A stretch of 32,000 nt of DNA from Candidatus Saccharimonadota bacterium. GTDB taxonomy: Bacteria > Pseudomonadota > Gammaproteobacteria > Enterobacterales > Enterobacteriaceae. The stretch lies in assembly GCA_015134435.1 (NCBI GenBank), contig CP043989.1, forward strand, positions 30,001 through 62,000. Direction: 5' to 3'. A program made the translations under genes and the position numbers. Shown one piece after another: positions 1,666 to 32,000 of the stretch. Under the pieces are notes generated by a model. That model saw only the letters and a list, made by a program, of their open reading frames with translations, searched no databases and had not been told where the DNA came from. The stretch's first letter is position 1; each line of letters starts with the position of its first letter.

Positions 1666-3144
1666 ATGATTAAAATGAATAAAATAAATTTATTAACTAG
1701 AAAAGATGAAATAAATATAGCTAAACGTATTGAAAAAAATATTTATAATACTCAATTTTATTTAGCTAAATTATTTAAATCTATATATTTTTTTTTAAAT
1801 CAATATTATTTAGTAAAAAAAGGTAAATTACGTTTATCTGATTTAATAATAGGATTTACTGATTATGATTTGAATTATTATATTAATAATAATATTAAAA
1901 AAAAAAAAAATAATAAAAATTTATATATAAATTTTATAAATTTCAGTATTATTGAAAAAAAATTTAATTATTTAATTTTTCAATATAATATATTAAAAAA
2001 ATTTATTAAAAAATATACTATAAATCATCCTTATACAATATATGAATGAAATAAATTGATAAAATTGTTTATGAAATTTAAATTATCTCCTAAACAATTT
2101 AATTATTTATTATATAAAATTAATAATATTATTAATTTAATAAATATTAAAGAAAAAGAAATTTTTAATTTATGTATAAATTATTGTTTTATTTCTAAAA
2201 AAAAATTTTATAAAAATTATTTTAATTATGGTACTAATCCTATATGATTAAAAAAAATATTTAATAATAATAAAATATTTTTTAAAAAATTTAAAAAAAT
2301 TAAAAAAAAGTTAAAAAAAAAATTAAAATATTTGTTTTTAATAGAAAAAAAATTTGGATTAAGTATATATAATATAAAAAAAATTAGTAAAAATTTAATA
2401 AATAATGAATTAAAAATTAAATTAGCTAAAAAAGAAATGGTTGAAGCTAATTTAAGATTAGTTATTTCTATTGCAAAAAAATATACAAATAGAGGTTTAC
2501 AATTTTTAGATTTAATCCAAGAAGGAAATATTGGATTAATGAAAGCTGTTGATAAATTTGAATATAAAAGAGGTTATAAATTTTCTACTTATGCAACTTG
2601 ATGAATACGTCAAGCTATTACTAGATCTATTGCTGATCAAGCTCGTACTATTAGAATTCCTGTTCATATGATTGAAACAATAAATAAATTAAATAGAATA
2701 TCTAGACAAATTTTACAAGAAATTGGTCGTGAACCTACACCTGAAGAATTATCTAATTATATGTCTATTTCAAAAGAAAAAATTAGAAAAATATTGAAAA
2801 TAGCAAAAGAACCTATTTCAATGGAAACACCAATTGGTGAAGATGAAGATTTACATTTAAGTGATTTTATAGAAGATTCTTCTTTAAAATTACCTTTAGA
2901 ATCTGCTACTTCTGAAAATTTAAAATTTATAACTAATATTGTATTATCTAGTCTTACTCCAAGAGAAGCTAAAGTTTTAAGAATGCGTTTTGGTATTGAT
3001 ATGAATAGTGATCATACATTAGAAGAAGTTGGTAAACAATTTGATGTTACTAGAGAAAGAATAAGACAAATAGAAGCTAAAGCTTTACGTAAATTACGTC
3101 ACCCTAGTAGATCTGATTTATTACGTAGTTTTTTAGAAGATTAA
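1666..3144 (+). CDS. rpoD: RNA polymerase primary sigma factor (sigma-70 family)
   Basis: Four ORF-track pieces (1666, 2056, 2332, 2668) share one frame and are separated only by TGA. The joined sequence reads [61 protein letters not shown], with WW encoded by TGA TGA at 2599-2604. Region 4 ([15 protein letters not shown]...[30 protein letters not shown]) is intact. The N-terminus [15 protein letters not shown] matches region 1.2. Confidence 0.97.
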
Positions 3145-3188
3145 TTTTTTATTTTGTAGTTATAAAATTTTATTGATATAATATAAAT

Positions 3189-3752
3189 ATGAATATATTA
3201 GAATATATAAATAAATTAAATATTAAAAAAAAAATGGAATCATGTTTAAATAATTTTAAAAAAAATATAAATAAATTTAATATTAATTTTTTAGATTCTA
3301 GCATTATTTCAAATTTGTTAATAAATTATTATAATAAAAAAATTTTTTTATATAAATTATCTAAAATATCTATAGAAAAAAAAAATTGTTTTAGAATTTG
3401 TTTATTTGATAAAACTATTAAAAATATAGTTAAAAAATCTATTTTATCTTTAAATTTAAATTTAAATATAAATGAAGATAAAGATGATATATTAATTTTT
3501 ATTCCTCCATTAACAGAGGAAAAAAGATATTATTTTATTAAATTATTAAAAAAAGAATTTGAATTATCAAAAATTTCTATTAGAAATGTAAGAAAATATT
3601 TTAAAAATAAAATTAAATTATTAATTAAAAATATTAATATTAGTAAAGATGAAGAAAATAAATTAAATTTTTTATTACAAAAAATTACTAATTTATATAT
3701 AAATAATTTAAATATTTTATTTTTAAAAAAAAAAGATTTTTTAAAAAAATAA
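3189..3752 (+). CDS. frr: ribosome recycling factor
   Basis: The product is 187 aa, against about 185 aa for Frr. Motifs PPLTEEKR, IRNVRK and ISKDEE align with E. coli PPLTEERRKDL, VRNVRRD and ISEDDD. Confidence 0.9.
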   Translation: MNILEYINKLNIKKKMESCLNNFKKNINKFNINFLDSSIISNLLINYYNKKIFLYKLSKISIEKKNCFRICLFDKTIKNIVKKSILSLNLNLNINEDKDDILIFIPPLTEEKRYYFIKLLKKEFELSKISIRNVRKYFKNKIKLLIKNINISKDEENKLNFLLQKITNLYINNLNILFLKKKDFLKK

Positions 3753-6755: not shown

Positions 6756-9700
6756 ATGATTTATCCTAAATTTATACATCTTAATGTTCATAGTGATTAT
6801 TCTATAAAAGATAGTATATGTAAAATAGATAATATTTTAAAAAAAGCTTATAAATTTAATATGCCTTCTATAGCTTTAACAGATTATTTTAATTTATCTG
6901 GAATTATTAAATTTTATAAAAAATCTTTATTTTATGGAATAAAACCTATATTTGGTTGTGATATAGCAATATATTATAAAAATATAAATAGTATAAATTA
7001 TTCTACTTTATTAATAATTAATAAAGTAGGTTATTATAATTTAATAAAATTAATTTCTATTGCTCATAAAAATTATAATAATTTTAATTTTTTATATATT
7101 GATTATAATTTATTATGTAAATTTAATGATGGTTTAATTTTATTATATTCTTTAAATTATTATTGTTATAATAATAAAAAATTTTTTTTTTATAATTTAA
7201 TTGATGTTAATAAACATATTTTATTTTTAAAAAAATATTTTTGTGAAAATTTATATTTACAAGTATTTCGTTTAAATCATAAAAATCAACATTTATACTT
7301 TAAAGATGTTTTATTATGTTCTAAAAATAATAATATTGATTTAGTTGCTACTAATAAAATTTTATTTTTAAAAAAAAAAGATTTTTATATAAATAAAATT
7401 CATTCTTCTATATATTATGGATGTAAATTAAAAAAAATTAATAATTTTATAAATTATACAAATCAATATTATTTTAAATCTCAAAATAAAATGTTTAATT
7501 TATTTTCTGATTTATCTATTTCTTTATTTAATACTATAAAAATTTCTTTTATGTGTAATTTTTTAATTAAAAAAAAAAAAATAATTTTACCTAGTTTTCC
7601 ATATAAATATAATTATTCATCTAATGATTATTTAAAAAAAATGGTTTTTATTGGTTTAAAAAAAAGAATGAATTTTAAAAATAATAATTTATTAAAAAAT
7701 AAATATTTATTACGTATAAATAAAGAATTAAATATAATATTTAAATTAAATATTTCAGATTATTTTTTAATAGTAATGGAATTTGTAAAATGATCTAAAA
7801 ATAATAAAATTTATGTTGGTCCAGGTAGAGGATCGGGTGCTGGATCTTTAGTAGTTTTTTTATTATATATAAGTGATGTTGATCCTATAAAATTTGGTTT
7901 AATTTTTGAAAGATTTTTAAATCTTGAAAGACAATCTATGCCTGATCTTGATATTGATTTTTGTATGAATAGAAGAGATGAAGTATTTATTCATTTAGAA
8001 AAAATATATGGAAATAATTCTTTAGCTCAAATTGTTACTTTTAATACTATGACAGCTAAATCTGTTTTAAGAGATGTTGGTAGGGTTTTAGGTTATCAAT
8101 ATCATTTTGTAGATTATTTAGCTAAATTAATACCTTCTGATGTAAATATTACTTTTAAAAAAGCTCTTATTTTAGAAAATAAATTAAATAATTTATATAA
8201 ATCTAATAAAGATATTAAATATTTAATTGATATTTCTTCTAAATTAGAAGGTGTAATTAAAGGTATAGGTAAACATGCTGGAGGAATAATAATATCTCCT
8301 AAATTAATAGATGATTTTTGTGCTACTTATTATGATAAAGATACAAATAAAATAATTACTCAATTTGATAAAGATGATATAAAATATATTGGTTTAGTAA
8401 AATTTGATTTATTAGGTTTAAGAACTTTAACTATTATAAATAATACTATTAACATAATAAATAATAATAAATATTTTAATAGTAATTTTAATATAAATAA
8501 AATATCTTTAAATAATAAAAAAAGTTTTGATTTATTAAAAAAATCTAAAACTATAGGTGTTTTTCAATTAGAATCAATTGGAATGAGGAAATTAATTAAA
8601 AAATTAAAACCAAATAATTTTAATGATATAGTATCTTTATTAGCATTATTTAGACCAGGTCCATTACAATCAGGAATGGTTGATAATTTTATTAATCGTA
8701 AAAATGGTAAAGAATGTATATATTATCCAGATAAAAAATGAGAACATAAATTATTAATTCCTGTATTAAAATATACTTATGGAATAATATTATATCAAGA
8801 ACAAGTAATGAAAATAGCTCAAATTTTAGCTAATTATAGTTTAGAAAAAGCTGACGAATTAAGAATAGCTATTACTAAAAAAAATCATAAAAAAATGAAA
8901 GTTCATAAAAAAATATTTAAAAATGGAGCTATTTTATTAGGTATAAATGGTGATTTTTCTTTAAAAATTTTCTCTTTAATGGAAAAATTTGCTAATTATG
9001 GTTTTAATAAATCTCATTCTGTATCTTATTCATTATTAGCATATCAAACTTTATGATTAAAATCTAATTTTACTGCTGAATTTTTAGTATCTATTATGAA
9101 TGCTGATATAGATAATATTAAAAAAATAATTTTAATTATAAATGAAGCTAAACAATTTGGTATAAAAATAATTTATCCTAATATTAATTTAAGTTTATAT
9201 AATTTTTATGTTAATAAAAATAAAGAAATAATATATGGTTTAGGTGCTATAAAAGGAATAGGAAAAAGTTCTATAGAACATATTATTAATATTCGTAATA
9301 AATATGGATTATTTAAAGATTATGTTAATTTTTGTAAATTAATATATAATAAAAAAATTACTAAATTAGTTTTAGAAAAATTAATTTTTTCAGGTTCTTT
9401 AGATATTTTTAAAATAAATAGATGTATATTATTTAATTATGTTAAAAAAATATTATATATTTTTAAAAATAAAAATAATAATTTAAATTTTATTCAATTA
9501 TCTTTATTTAAAAATAAAAAATCTTTAGATAATTTTATTTATAAAGATATGAAAAAATGTTCTAATTTATTAAATAAAGAAAATATATTAAATAAAGAAA
9601 AAGAATCATTAGGATTTTATTTAACTGATCATCCAATAAATAAATATATTAATTTTGTTAAAAATAAAGTTAATTTTTTTTTTATAAAAGATTTATTTTT

Positions 9701-11177: not shown

Positions 11178-12167
11178 ATGAATAAAAATAATATTATTAT
11201 TTACAGTTGATTTAAAAAAAATTATATTAAACTTATAAATATTTATAATTATTTTAGTTTTAAAAATAAAAATTTTATAATTACATATTCATGTAATTTA
11301 AATATAGATTTATTAATATTTAAATGAATAAAATGAATTTTTTGTTTAAATAAAAAAAAATATAATTTATGTAATAAATGTTTTAATTGTATTTTATTTA
11401 AAAAAAAAATATATTTAAATTATTATTATATAAATGATGATAATTTTAATATAAATTATATTAAAAATATATATAAAAATTTATTAAGTAATATTAATTT
11501 TAATATTTATAAAATAGTTTATTTTTCTAATTTTTTATTTAATAATATTTATATAAATAATTATTTATTAAAAATTTTAGAACAATATAATATTAATTTT
11601 TTTTTTATATTTAGTTGTTTAGATAATATTATTATTCCTAATACTATATTAAGTAGATTATTTTTTATAAAAATTAAATTTCCTAAAGAAAAAAAAATAT
11701 TTAATTTATTAATTAATAAAAAATGTATTAAAAAATTTAATAAAAATGTTATTTTATCATTTATTAGATTAAATAATAATTCTTTAATTGATACTTATAA
11801 ATGAATTAAAAATAATTTTTATATAAAAAAATATCTTATAAAATTAATATTAAATTTAAATAAATTAAATATTAATAAAATAGTAAAAATATTAAATAAT
11901 AATAAATTAGAAGTTAATTTATATATATTAATTACTATATTTTTAGATTTTATTAAATATAAATATAATATTAAAAAATATTTATATAATTTAGATATAT
12001 ATTTTTTTTTAAAAAAAAAAAAAAATTTTTTTGATATTAATAAAATTTATTTTATTTTAAATAAATTAATTTTTTGTTTAAGTAATATTAAAAAAATTTT
12101 AAATATAAATAAAAAAATTTTATTATATGATTTAGTTAATTTTTTATTAATAAATTTAAATTTTTAA
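11178..12167 (+). CDS. holB: DNA polymerase III delta-prime subunit
   Basis: Not in the ORF track because of internal TGAs, e.g. 11208-11210. The 329-aa translation has YSWFKKNYIKLIN (E. coli YPWLRPDFEKLVA) and the Cys cluster CLNKKKYNLCNKCFNC (E. coli CQQPQGHKSCGHCRGC). It also has NYLLKILEQ (NALLKTLEEP) and TILSRLFFIKIKFP (TLRSRCRLHYLAPP). The stop is TAA at 12165-12167. Confidence 0.8.
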
Positions 12168-15281: not shown

Positions 15282-15693
15282 ATATATTTATATTATTTTA
15301 TTTTTTTTATTTATATTTTAAATATAAATTTAATTAATATTTTTTTATAAATTATAAAAATATTTTATATTTTAAATATTTATAAATTTTTTAAATATTT
15401 TAAATTTATTATTAAATTAATATTTTATTAATTTAATATATTTATAGATATAAATATAAAAATTTTAATAATTTTAAATTTATTTTTATAAATATATTAA
15501 AAAATTTTAAATTATTATTTTATAAGTATTGTTTAAAAAATTATTTTAATATATTATATATAATATATTAATTTAATTTTTTAATATTATAATATTAATT
15601 ATATTTTATTAATTTTTTATTAAAAATTATTTATTTTTTATTGTTTAAATATTTTAATAAATTTATTATTAACAATTTTATTTATAAATATTA

Positions 15694-16044
15694 ATGAATA
15701 ATTATTTAAAAAAAATAAATTTATATTTTTTTGATATATTTTTTTTATTTATATTTAATTTTTTTTTATATAAATATAATTTTATTTTTTTATTTTTTTT
15801 AAAAAAAATTTTTTTTTGTTTATTTTTTTATTTATTAAAAAATTATTTTTTTTTAAAAAATTTAATTATTTTTTTTAAAAAATCAAAATTAGAAATTTTA
15901 AAAATTATTTGACCTTCTTTTTATGAAGTAAATAAAAATATTTTTATAATTTATTTATTTAGTTTTTTTATATCAATTATTATTTTTTTAATTGATAAAA
16001 TTATATTTAATATATTTTTTTTTATTAATAATTTATATTTTTAA
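15694..16044 (+). CDS. secE: preprotein translocase subunit SecE
   Basis: The product is a hydrophobic low-complexity protein. Reading through TGA at 15910-15912 gives EILKIIWPSFYEVNKNIFIIYLFSFFISIII, which matches the SecE signature (E. coli VRWPTRQETLHTTLIVAAV). It lies directly upstream of nusG, as in secE-nusG. The start codon choice is uncertain. Confidence 0.75.
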
Positions 16045-22721: not shown

Positions 22722-26924
<4,203 letters not shown>

Positions 26925-26949: not shown

Positions 26950-27951
26950 ATGATTAAAAAAAATATTTTTAGTGCTATACAACCTACAGGTAATTTAACT
27001 ATTGGTCATTATATTGGTGTTTTAAAAATTTGAATAAAAAAACAATATAAATATAATTGTTTTTTTTGTATTGCTGATTTGCATTCTTGAATTAGTATAA
27101 AAAATAAAAAAAAAATTAAAAATTATATTTATAGTTTATTATCTATAATGTTATCTATTGGAATAAATCCTAAAAAATGTAATATTTTTTTACAATCTGA
27201 TATTATAGAACATATAAAACTTTATTGATTATTAAATTGTTATACTTATGTTGGTGAATTAAATCGTATGACACAATTTAAAAATAAAATTAAAAATAAA
27301 AATTTTAAAATAAATTGTGGATTATTAAATTATCCAATATTAATGTCTTCTGATATATTATTATATAATACAAATTATGTACCTATTGGATATGATCAAA
27401 TTCAACATATAGAATTAACTAAAATTATTGCTAATAGAATAAATAAATTATATAATAAAAATATATTTACTATACCAAATTATATTATATCAAAATATGG
27501 TTCTAAAATAATGTCTTTATGTAATCCAAATAAAAAAATGTCTAAATCTGATATTAATAAAAATAATGTTATTTATTTATTAGATAAATTTAATGATATA
27601 AAATATAAAATAATTAATTCTTTAACTGATTCTCAATTTCCTTCTAAAATATTATATGATAAAATAAAAAAACCTGGTATATCTAATTTATTAGTTATAT
27701 TTTCTAATATAAAAAATATTTCTATTAATAAATTAGAAAAAAAATTTTTAAATATATCATATAAAAATTTTAAAAATATTTTTATAAATGAATTAAATAA
27801 TTTTTTATATAATATACAAAAAAAATATTTTTATTTTATAAAAAAAAAAAAATTATTAAAAAAAATTTTATTAAAAGGAAAATTAAAAGTAAAAAAAATA
27901 GCAAAAAAAAATATAAATTATATTTATAATTGTATTGGTATTATTAAATAA
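26950..27951 (+). CDS. trpS: tryptophan--tRNA ligase
   Basis: ATG at 26950 gives [28 protein letters not shown]... (E. coli [22 protein letters not shown]). [19 protein letters not shown] joins the ORF-track 27268 piece in frame. The KMSKS motif is present. Several internal TGA codons occur. Confidence 0.96.
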
Positions 27952-27965
27952 TTATTAATTGTAAT

Positions 27966-28615
27966 TTATCATATAATTGGTTTTTTTTTATTTTTAATTA
28001 AAAAATCATTAGTTTTTTTAAAATGATTACAGTTTAAAAAACTTTTTTTAAAAGATAAATTAGATGGATGAGAAGATATTAAAATTAAATGTTTTTTTTT
28101 ATTAATTAAATGAAATTTTTTTTTAGCATAATTACCTCATAATAAAAATACAATATTATTATTATATTTATTTATATATTTTATTATATTATTTGTAAAT
28201 ATTTCTCATCCTATATTTTTATGTGATAATTTTTTTTTATATTCTACAGTTAATATACTATTTAATAATAATACACCTTGTTTAGTTCAATTTATTAAAT
28301 ATCCATTTTTAGGAATTATAAAATTTTTATATTCATTTTTTATTTCTCTATATATATTTTTTATTGATGAAGTATTTTTAATATTAGGTAATAAAGAAAA
28401 AGAAAGTCCATGAGATTGATTTTTATTACAATAAGGATCTTGTCCTAAAATTACTACTTTAATATTTTTAAATTTTGTTAATTTAAAAGCTTCAAATATT
28501 TTTTTTTTTTTGGATATATTATTTTTTTTTTATATTCTTTATTTAAAAATTTTTTAATTTTTATAAAATATTTTTTTTTTTTTTCAATTTTTATAATTTT
28601 TTTTCAATTTATCAT
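27966..28615 (-). CDS. ung: uracil-DNA glycosylase, interrupted by a frame change in a poly(A) tract (intact only with slippage; otherwise a pseudogene)
   Basis: Not in the ORF track. The frame below 28529 encodes IFEAFKLTKFKNIKVVILGQDPY...HGLSF...GVLLLN...VFLLWG...SSHPSNLS...FLNCNHF, ending TGA TAA (stop is the complement of 27966-27968). The N-terminal 35 codons (MINWKKIIKIEKKKKYFIKIKKFLNKEYKKKIIYP, ATG is the complement of 28613-28615) are in a different frame. They match the E. coli Ung N-terminus (...LTW...PYFLNTL...TIYPPQKDVFNAF). The frames meet in a run of 13 T (plus strand 28499-28511). The total length is 650 nt, not a multiple of 3. Confidence 0.8.
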
Positions 28616-29469
28616 TTTTTATTTTTTTTTATATGTATATATAATTTTATTTTTTTTTTATAATTAAAATATTTTTTTATATCTTTTTTTGATAAATAAC
28701 TTATATATTTTATTTTATTTCCTGATTTTCCTATTATTATATTATAATGTTGTTTTTTTTTTATATTTATATTACAAAATATTATTTTTTTATTTTTTAA
28801 ATTAATTATTTTTTTTATTTTTATTGATATTGAATATGGTATTTCATCTCCTGTAAATTTAAAAAATTTTTCTCTTATTATTTCTTTAATTATAAATTTT
28901 GAATTATGTATTGTTTTTATTTTTTTTTTAAAATAATGTTGTGATTTTATTAAAAAATTATTTATTATATTTTGTAAATATTTTATATATTTTTTTTTTT
29001 TTATACAAATTGGTATAATATTTTTATGTTTTATATTATTTTTTATTTTTTTTATTAAAGGTAATATATTTTTTTTATTTTTTATTTTATCTATTTTATT
29101 TATTAATATAATTATAGGAATTTTTATAAAATTTATTTTATTTATTATTTTTTTTTCATAAAAAAAAATATTTTTTTCTATTAATATTATTATTAAATTT
29201 ATTTTTTTTTTAATATTTATATATTTTTTTAAAATATTATTTATATTATATAATAATTTTTTAAATTTTATATAATTATTTATTCCAGGAGTGTCAATAT
29301 ATATATATTGATTATTTTTTATTGTATTTATACCTATTATATATTTTTTAGTAGTATTTTTTTTTTTTGATGTAATAGATATTTTTTTATTAATTAATTT
29401 ATTAAATAAAGTAGATTTTCCTACATTTGATTTACCAATTATAGCAATATAAATACATTTTTTATGCAT
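28609..29469 (-). CDS. era: GTPase Era
   Basis: G1 (GKSNVGKST), G3 (DTPG) and G4 (NKID) motifs are present, with a KH-like C-terminal part. The gene follows rnc as in the rnc-era operon. The ORF-track end at 28612 is a TGA, followed immediately by TAA (complement of 28609-28611). Confidence 0.9.
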
Positions 29470-31058: not shown

Positions 31059-32000
31059 CTAAAATTTTATTTTTAATATTTTAAAATATATTTTTGGTGA
31101 TATTAAAATATTTCCTCTTTTTTTTAATTTTTTTTTACCTTTTTTTTGTTTATTTAATAATTTTTTTTTTCTTGTAATATCTCCTCCATAACATTTTGAA
31201 ATAACATTTTTTCTAAAAGATTTAATTGTAGATGAAGAAATTATTTTATTATTACATTTTGATTGTATTTTTATTTCAAATTGTTGTTTTTTAATATTAT
31301 TTTTTAAAATATTAATTATATTTTCGCTATATTTTTTAATATCTTTTTTATTTAATAATACTGAAAAACCTTCTAATTTATTATTATTTATTAAAATTTC
31401 TAATAAATTAATATTTGATTTTTTATATTTTTTAAATTTATATTCAAATGACGCATATCCTTGGGAAATAGATTTAATAATATTATTAAAATTTGTTATT
31501 ATTTCATATGTTGGTAATTCATATTTTAAATAAACATTATTATTATAATATAATATTTTTTTTTGTACACCTCTTTTATTTAAACATAATTTAATTATTT
31601 TACTTAAAAATATTTGAGGTGTTATTATATTACATATTGATATAGGTTCTTGTATTTCTTTTATATTGTTTTTTAATGGCAATTTATTTGGATTTTCTAT
31701 ATATAATATTTTTTTTTTTTTTGTAATAACTTTATAAATTACATTAGGAGATGTTATTATTATATTTAAATTATATTCTTTTTTTAATCTTTCTTTTATT
31801 ATTTCTATATGTAAAATTCCTAAAAATCCACATCTAAATCCATTTCCTAATAAATATGAATTTTCTGGTTTAAATGTAAAAGAATAATCATTTAAACTTA
31901 ATTTTTCTATTGATTTTTTAAAATATATAAAATTTTTATTATTTTCAGGATATAAACTAGCATATATTTTAGATTTTGTTTTTTTAAATTTTGGTATTTC
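31059..32000 (-). CDS. lepA: elongation factor 4 (LepA), 5'-truncated by the window edge
   Basis: The minus-strand frame is open from 32000. It reads ...YASLYPENN...[59 protein letters not shown]... This matches E. coli LepA ([25 protein letters not shown]). The C-terminal [24 protein letters not shown] motif is present. The stop is TAG (complement of 31059-31061). Confidence 0.95.
   Translation of the reverse strand, partial: [313 protein letters not shown]

Follow-up and report, generated by a model that had tools for sequence, protein, structure and literature searches.

In the window, a 32,000-nucleotide stretch of bacterial DNA, the uracil-DNA glycosylase gene ung is divided between two reading frames that meet in a run of 13 A (mRNA sense), and the addition of a single A to this run (A14) creates a PKKKK-IFEAF junction within a complete, 216-aa family-1 uracil-DNA glycosylase. 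Alignment with relatives identifies A14 as the ancestral register of the tract, and the integrity of the remaining gene excludes a long-standing pseudogene. We tentatively favor a frameshift that is present in the DNA but is bypassed, at some rate, by slippage.

Host genome and two-frame anatomy of ung

The window has a GC content of 13.7% and uses genetic code 4 (TGA = Trp). TGA occurs at conserved Trp positions, and the window must therefore be read with this code, which is needed for Ung residues W4, W110, W137, W160, and W216 as well as for the neighboring genes. Under table 11, trpS appears as three ORFs (26950-27033, 27148-27228, and 27268-27951) that code 4 joins into one ORF of 333 aa. 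The DNA matches Candidatus Stammera capleta, a gut symbiont of tortoise beetles whose genomes are annotated with code 4, and most likely comes from the strain of the beetle Acromis sparsa.

A protein search returned ∼36 relatives of Ung with 60-84% identity and lengths of 215-221 aa, nearly all on NCBI contigs of 240-313 kb. The three closest (CP144769, CP144768, and CP144815) are gammaproteobacterial and have the synteny of the window, lepA-lepB-rnc-era-ung on one strand and trpS-rpoC on the opposite one. Zinderia and Nasuia, which code 4 and a GC content of ∼13.5% would also have suggested, were rejected as sources on the strength of these gammaproteobacterial, syntenic relatives. A single NCBI contig of 212,704 bp carries six window proteins, the 45-aa fragment of Ung among them; the exact era product is on this contig. 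In the collections searched, the window proteins occur in this NCBI record only, and a search for a Logan assembly of the strain found none. Table S2 of bioRxiv 10.1101/2023.12.12.571295 credits the A. sparsa strain with 216,430 bp and one plasmid, the smallest genome of the clade, with 13.9% GC, the clade minimum, and with 0 pseudogenes; it also lists 201 CDS versus 222-317 in the other strains, indicating that this strain is actively losing genes. The column headed “AT Content (%)” in that table evidently contains GC%. In the deposited genome the truncated 45-aa ung product stands as a called gene, and no pseudogene is listed, so the ung lesion is unannotated; the supplement of the Stammera paper mentions neither ung nor uracil. 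Elsewhere in the window, the ORF at 3129-3752 (+) encodes ribosome recycling factor (PF01765, E = 4e-33), and the ORF at 15688-16044 (+), directly upstream of nusG and with no Pfam match, could be secE by position.

The elements of the ung locus are as follows.

27966-28499, minus strand: ung 3′ segment, one base back, IFEAFKL...GQDPY...GLSFS...LLLN...LLWG...HPSNLS...PIIW, with its stop TAA at 27966-27968 (code-4 translation, Pfam)
28478-28480, minus strand: TAA ending the ung ATG frame after 45 aa (translation)
28499-28511, minus strand: run of 13 A in the mRNA sense (T13 on the plus strand) in which the frames overlap, one base under an in-frame 14 (sequence and DNA alignment)
28499-28615, minus strand: 5′ part of ung, read in the ATG frame: codons 1-35 (MINWKK...KKKIIYP) followed by four AAA Lys codons; MINWK matches the closest Stammera Ung N-termini
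28530-28532, minus strand: TAA closing the ung catalytic frame upstream, with no canonical start between this TAA and GQDPY (translation)
28571-28584, minus strand: in-frame A14 tract (G + A14, E-KKKK-Y) in the ung N-terminal segment, with the same length in three relatives
28609-29469, minus strand: era, directly upstream of ung; its code-4 end, ...KKNKK-W(TGA)-TAA, overlaps the ung ATG (ATGATAA) (translation)

The ung start codon is the ATG at 28615-28613. Its frame opens with MINWKKIIKIEKKKKYFIKIKKFLNKEYKKKIIYP and runs for 35 codons to a Pro (CCA) whose A is the first base of the 13-A run (28511-28499). Past this Pro the frame reads KKKKYLKLLN and stops at TAA 28480-28478, giving the 45-aa product MINWKKIIKIEKKKKYFIKIKKFLNKEYKKKIIYPKKKKYLKLLN. 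The catalytic frame lies one base back, is closed upstream by TAA 28532-28530, and is then open to TAA 27968-27966; in code-4 translation it encodes ..KKKKIFEAFKLTKFKNIKVVILGQDPY..GLSFS..LLLN..LLWG..HPSNLS..PIIW, with zero ATG, GTG, or TTG codons ahead of GQDPY and zero Met codons throughout. As deposited, codons 1-39 and codons 40-216 thus lie in different frames rather than in one uninterrupted ORF. The coordinates of the initial annotation (a 13-nt T run at 28499-28511, an ATG complementary to 28613-28615, and both TAAs) all proved correct; its ∼45-aa product ending at the complement of 28478-28480 is 45 aa, its account of a catalytic frame closed at 28530-28532 with no ATG, GTG, or TTG before GQDPY was borne out, and the motifs that it placed one frame back (GQDPY, GLSF, LLLN, LLWG, and HPS) are all present in code-4 translation. 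The two long A runs of ung make up 27 of 651 nt, or ∼4% of the gene, and a frame break that falls in one of them has therefore not been placed at random.

We rejected a separately translated C-terminal fragment, since this frame is devoid of Met codons and has none of ATG, GTG, or TTG ahead of GQDPY, and since such a fragment would also drop the conserved first 39 residues of Ung. Starts at ATA or ATT, formally permitted in table 4, have no support here.

Both the C-terminus of era and the extent to which era overlaps ung (28609-28615, minus strand, in the window) differ across four genomes, with a 29-nt overlap in relative L081 and none in L083. The A14 tract at 28571-28584 keeps its length in the window and three relatives although ∼7% of nearby positions differ, and so stable a 14-A run in slippage-prone genomes is curious.

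The repaired, full-length protein reads ..IIYPKKKKIFEAF.. across the junction, where its Lys-rich segment is IIYPKKKKIFEAFK; the 45-aa product ends instead in YLKLLN. The repaired Ung scores 280.9 bits against the NCBIfam equivalog NF003589 (cutoff 223) and 252.4 bits against TIGR00628 (cutoff 185.75), aligns with PDB 2jhq over residues 2-216 (E = 5e-65), and shows no gap at the junction relative to the human UNG structure. The 3′ segment matches the Pfam UDG family (E = 1e-17), and a Pfam search with the 45-aa product gave no family match. Residues Q59, D60, P61, Y62, F73, S74, N119, H183, P184, and S185, invariant in 40 sequences, are kept in the window, as is L187; the 5′ segment likewise retains the invariant E11, Y16, I33, and P35.

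Tract register, constraint, and other homopolymers

Across an alignment of 40 Ung sequences, P35 and I40 never vary and always enclose exactly four residues (PKKNK, PKKKN, and the like), and this fixed spacing identifies A14 as the ancestral register. The initial annotation had proposed repair to either 14 or 11 A. Both lengths restore the frame, but only A14 fits the register of the relatives; we rejected A11 because it removes a residue from a segment without length variation in the 40 sequences. The DNA of the three closest relatives reads CCT AAA AAA AAT AAA AT(A/T) TTT, whereas the window reads CC + A13 + TATTTG, so that both interrupting T bases are missing and the tract is one base short. 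This single indel falls within an uninterrupted run of at least 9 A, and the 216 codons contain no further gap or stop. Comparison of the tract between relatives, which had been put forward as a check, places the window one base short; the frameshift is absent from all of the ∼36 relatives examined, including the three closest with their T-interrupted tracts, and is not conserved across species. At least 35 relatives carry ung intact (215-218 aa), in one frame, and with the same four-residue spacing; such retention in at least 35 Stammera-size genomes shows that ung is kept under selection across the clade.

Lengthening of A tracts is widespread in the window lineage. Interrupting G or T bases have been replaced by A in era, trpS, rpoC, and lepA, with all frames kept, and the tracts at era 28990-29002 and 29357-29368, trpS 27840-27852, rpoC 26573-26584, and lepA 31709-31722 are longer than in relatives L081, L083, and L085. 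Over the same 8 kb of coding sequence, the window has 32 runs of at least 9 nt and 15.0% GC, compared with 21-26 runs and 15.8-16.7% GC in the relatives. This strain hence shows a general trend to tract fusion, and its ung tract is newly formed. The mutational path does not discriminate between lengths by parsimony, since both alternatives need two events: one T deletion plus one T>A for a real frameshift, or two T>A changes for a true A14.

We estimated constraint by the Nei-Gojobori method under code 4 with least-squares terminal branches, comparing the window with L081, L083, and L085. On the window branch, ung has a dN of 0.063, a dS of 0.128, and an omega of 0.50, with neighboring genes on the same branch at 0.15-0.56; absolute omega is unreliable at this composition, and hence only between-gene comparisons were used. 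The ratio of ung dN to neighbor dN is 1.03 in the window and 0.44-1.11 in genomes with an intact ung. Nucleotide changes unique to the window number 37 in ung, compared with 15-36 in the relatives; their distribution over codon positions (12/7/18) shows that the third-position bias persists, and they occur at 0.068 per nt upstream of the break and 0.055 per nt downstream. In an ORF this rich in Lys and Ile, approximately 9-10% of neutral substitutions make a stop, and 29 neutral downstream changes would leave the 177-codon frame open ∼6% of the time. With respect to deviation at columns conserved in at least 90% of other Stammera Ung sequences, the window ranks 24th of 37, below most intact relatives, and 46 of 46 invariant residues are present.

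The signs of an eroding pseudogene (multiple disruptions, loss of conserved residues, and an omega near 1) were not found in ung, which has a single 1-nt defect. Its undamaged state and neighbor-like substitution pattern exclude an old pseudogene. A real frameshift would have to be very recent or else tolerated. The constraint on ung mostly reflects the time before the frameshift, so that present function is not demonstrable from it.

Terminal-branch omega is higher in the window lineage than in most relatives for era (0.56), lepB (0.54), and trpS (0.56), rough estimates at this composition, and the increase fits stronger drift in the smallest genome.

The window contains 91 A/T runs of at least 9 nt. 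Eleven runs of at least 12 nt lie inside ORFs, and among these the ung junction alone breaks frame. In addition to the A14 tract of ung, the in-frame tracts are as follows.

1897-1910: rpoD, long A tract, in frame
7569-7581: dnaE, 13-nt tract, in frame
12011-12025: holB, long tract, in frame
26573-26584: rpoC, 12-mer, in frame
27840-27852: trpS, in frame
28990-29002: era, in frame
29357-29368: era, second tract, 12-mer, in frame
31709-31722: lepA, 14-nt tract, in frame
miaB: 12-mer, in frame

The in-frame tracts listed at the outset (rpoD, holB, trpS, era, and ung 28571-28584) were correctly assigned, and the census adds dnaE, lepA, and three 12-mers. The accompanying claim that homopolymers are not generally miscalled holds insofar as 10 of the 10 other tracts of at least 12 nt are in frame, but this number bounds the per-tract error rate only below ∼25%.

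The census also shows that the essential genes rpoD, dnaE, holB, rpoC, and lepA carry in-frame tracts of A12-A15. At published slippage rates, a sizeable fraction of the transcripts of these genes would be frameshifted, which implies either that faulty transcripts are well tolerated or that the RNA polymerase is less prone to slip.

Explanations for the 13-A tract

Our preferred reading, offered tentatively, is that the deposited A. sparsa-strain genome truly has 13 A and that ung is frameshifted in the DNA but leaky; both the DNA length of 13 and a useful enzyme yield from slippage are what we infer. AT-biased substitutions would have erased the interrupting T bases still seen in relatives, after which a single base would have been lost, either by a slip from A14 to A13 or by deletion of an interrupting T. 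RNA polymerase would slip backward on the T13 template so that some ung transcripts gain one A, and ribosomes might, additionally or instead, slip by −1 on A-AAA-AAA. A transcript with +1A and a ribosomal −1 shift would lead to the identical 216-aa Ung at a lowered dosage, and unslipped messages would yield the 45-aa dead-end peptide.

The single broken tract among the 11 sits in ung, the least essential gene of the window, a placement that random miscalls would not favor and that counts for a real frameshift. Furthermore, Stammera assemblies were curated by read mapping against local errors following established protocols. The leaky reading is also supported by the completeness of the +1A product, by the retention of ung across the clade, by the undamaged, constrained state of both halves of the gene, and by the ongoing gene loss of the strain. 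For long poly(A) runs in Buchnera and Blochmannia, PMC5009743 gives 12-50% frame-corrected transcripts, and a figure of ∼30% full-length among transcripts of frameshifted genes is cited in PMC3017870; the initial annotation's statement that poly(A) slippage rescues genes in AT-rich endosymbionts finds its precedents here. Single-base insertion by backward slippage is the dominant transcription error at A/T runs in Buchnera, and its rate climbs steeply with run length (PMC5574713). An insertion of one A is the type of transcription error needed to restore the window ung. Ribosomes, too, slide on iterated AAA or poly(A) (PMC4363877).

Several observations count against the leaky frameshift. Genome-wide data from Buchnera contain zero transcripts with a slippage-restored reading frame (PMC5574713), the count of 13 versus 14 comes from one short-read assembly of PCR-amplified libraries, and each ung transcript crosses the in-frame A14 tract 60 nt upstream, itself a source of out-of-frame messages. 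Moreover, the frameshift is not common to any relative examined, so that conservation, the strongest published argument for selection-maintained slippage, is missing.

A homopolymer miscall is possible, although on balance we doubt it. The true tract would then be A14 and ung an ordinary intact gene, the missing base being the outcome of PCR stutter or sequencing error and of the consensus choice. An A14 tract gives back the exact ancestral spacing in a gene that is otherwise flawless, that shows relaxed constraint in none of our tests, and that is kept in essentially all other Stammera genomes. The genome was assembled as a metagenome with MEGAHIT from Illumina 2×150 reads of PCR-based libraries. 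Length errors at A/T runs of 13-14 nt are common in PCR-based short reads and are biased toward contraction, and the loose bound on the per-tract error (<∼25%), drawn from only ten other tracts, accommodates such an event. Against a miscall, all ten of those runs of at least 12 nt, A14 and A15 included, are in frame, and the affected tract lies in the window's most dispensable gene, as a random error would do about once in 11 cases.

We regard a very recent, true pseudogene as unlikely. Here the 1-nt loss would be real, slippage products would be too rare to matter, and ung would be effectively dead with no time for decay. The gene is missing from several of the smallest symbiont genomes, and the A. 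sparsa strain has the smallest genome and the fewest genes of its clade (216 kb, 201 CDS). A lineage-specific frameshift and the Buchnera transcriptome without restored frames (PMC5574713) fit this explanation as well, and the clade-lowest GC of 13.9% is, speculatively, compatible with weak uracil repair. However, with an open ORF only ∼6% likely under 29 neutral downstream changes, ung must have been inactivated very late on the branch. A 13-A tract is also physically expected to slip at appreciable rates, which makes complete silence of ung unlikely.

These explanations correspond to the three named by the initial annotation (slippage rescue, early pseudogene, and sequencing error); that set was the right one, and our tests narrow it without settling it.

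A stronger form of the leaky frameshift, in which the 13-A state is real and selection-maintained and ung is expressed only via slippage, throttling uracil excision, is distinctly improbable. If true, ung would be the first gene reported to depend on slippage in an extracellular insect symbiont that uses code 4, and the lowered Ung dosage would be tied to the clade-lowest GC of the strain. Finally, a programmed −1 ribosomal frameshift resembling that of dnaX and setting a ratio of 45-aa and 216-aa products has a perfect slippery heptamer (A-AAA-AAA) inside the tract in its favor, but is very unlikely indeed, close to negligible, given the lack of stimulatory RNA structure (99 nt downstream fold at −8.2 kcal/mol versus a shuffle mean of −9.9, z = +0.69) and of conservation (the two-frame arrangement is absent in relatives, which have Ung in one frame), together with a 45-aa product without a family match.

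Significance and comparison with known systems

If the 13-A count is real, a DNA-repair gene has been caught at the very first step of its loss, or it depends on slippage for expression, in the smallest known Stammera genome and in a strain listed with zero pseudogenes. Poly(A) slippage as described in Buchnera and Blochmannia would then extend to another clade of symbionts, one that has reassigned a stop codon. The case of ung bears on the mutual reinforcement of AT bias, tract lengthening, and repair loss. If the tract is a miscall, the consequence is an annotation correction only: the 45-aa CDS is spurious, and ung is missing from the deposited genome. The searchable literature holds no paper linking Stammera with poly(A) frameshifts.

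As a family-1 UDG (PF03167, TIGR00628), the repaired product is colinear with the E. coli, V. cholerae, and human UNG proteins and has the catalytic Asp of GQDPY, the Phe of GL(A/S)FS, the Asn of LLLN, and the His and Leu of HPSxLS. Unlike an ordinary member of the family, ung as deposited occupies two frames with no single ORF.

The dnaX gene undergoes a programmed frameshift at A-AAA-AAG. Like dnaX and the lysine-encoding poly(A) on which ribosomes slide (PMC4363877), the window ung presents an iterated AAA slippery site, here one at which a −1 shift gives the same protein as +1A. Unlike dnaX, it has neither downstream structure nor conservation, and any slip would be adventitious rather than programmed.

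In the standard model cited in PMC3017870 and PMC5574713, inactivation of genes by homopolymer indels is the first step of genome erosion in obligate symbionts. The window ung resembles it in that, in the lineage with the strongest AT bias and the heaviest gene loss, a newly lengthened A run has changed by 1 nt within a repair gene that is not essential. In contrast to that model, the window ung has no secondary damage; if this is erosion, it has been caught at the first event.

The closest parallels are the poly(A) frameshifts of Buchnera and Blochmannia (Tamas et al. 2008 via PMC5009743; Blochmannia vafer, PMC3017870). They, too, occur in extremely AT-rich, vertically transmitted insect symbionts and consist of a 1-nt indel in an uninterrupted A run of at least 9-12 nt within a gene that is otherwise intact and free of rate acceleration, and a 1-nt change of the tract in the mRNA restores the frame. 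The window ung differs in that its frameshift is not conserved among the relatives compared and is read from one assembly, and in that the host here is a code-4, extracellular gut symbiont (Stammera) and the gene is ung. With these differences of host and gene, the window ung is a further case of the well-documented poly(A)-tract frameshift in a constrained gene of an AT-rich insect symbiont.
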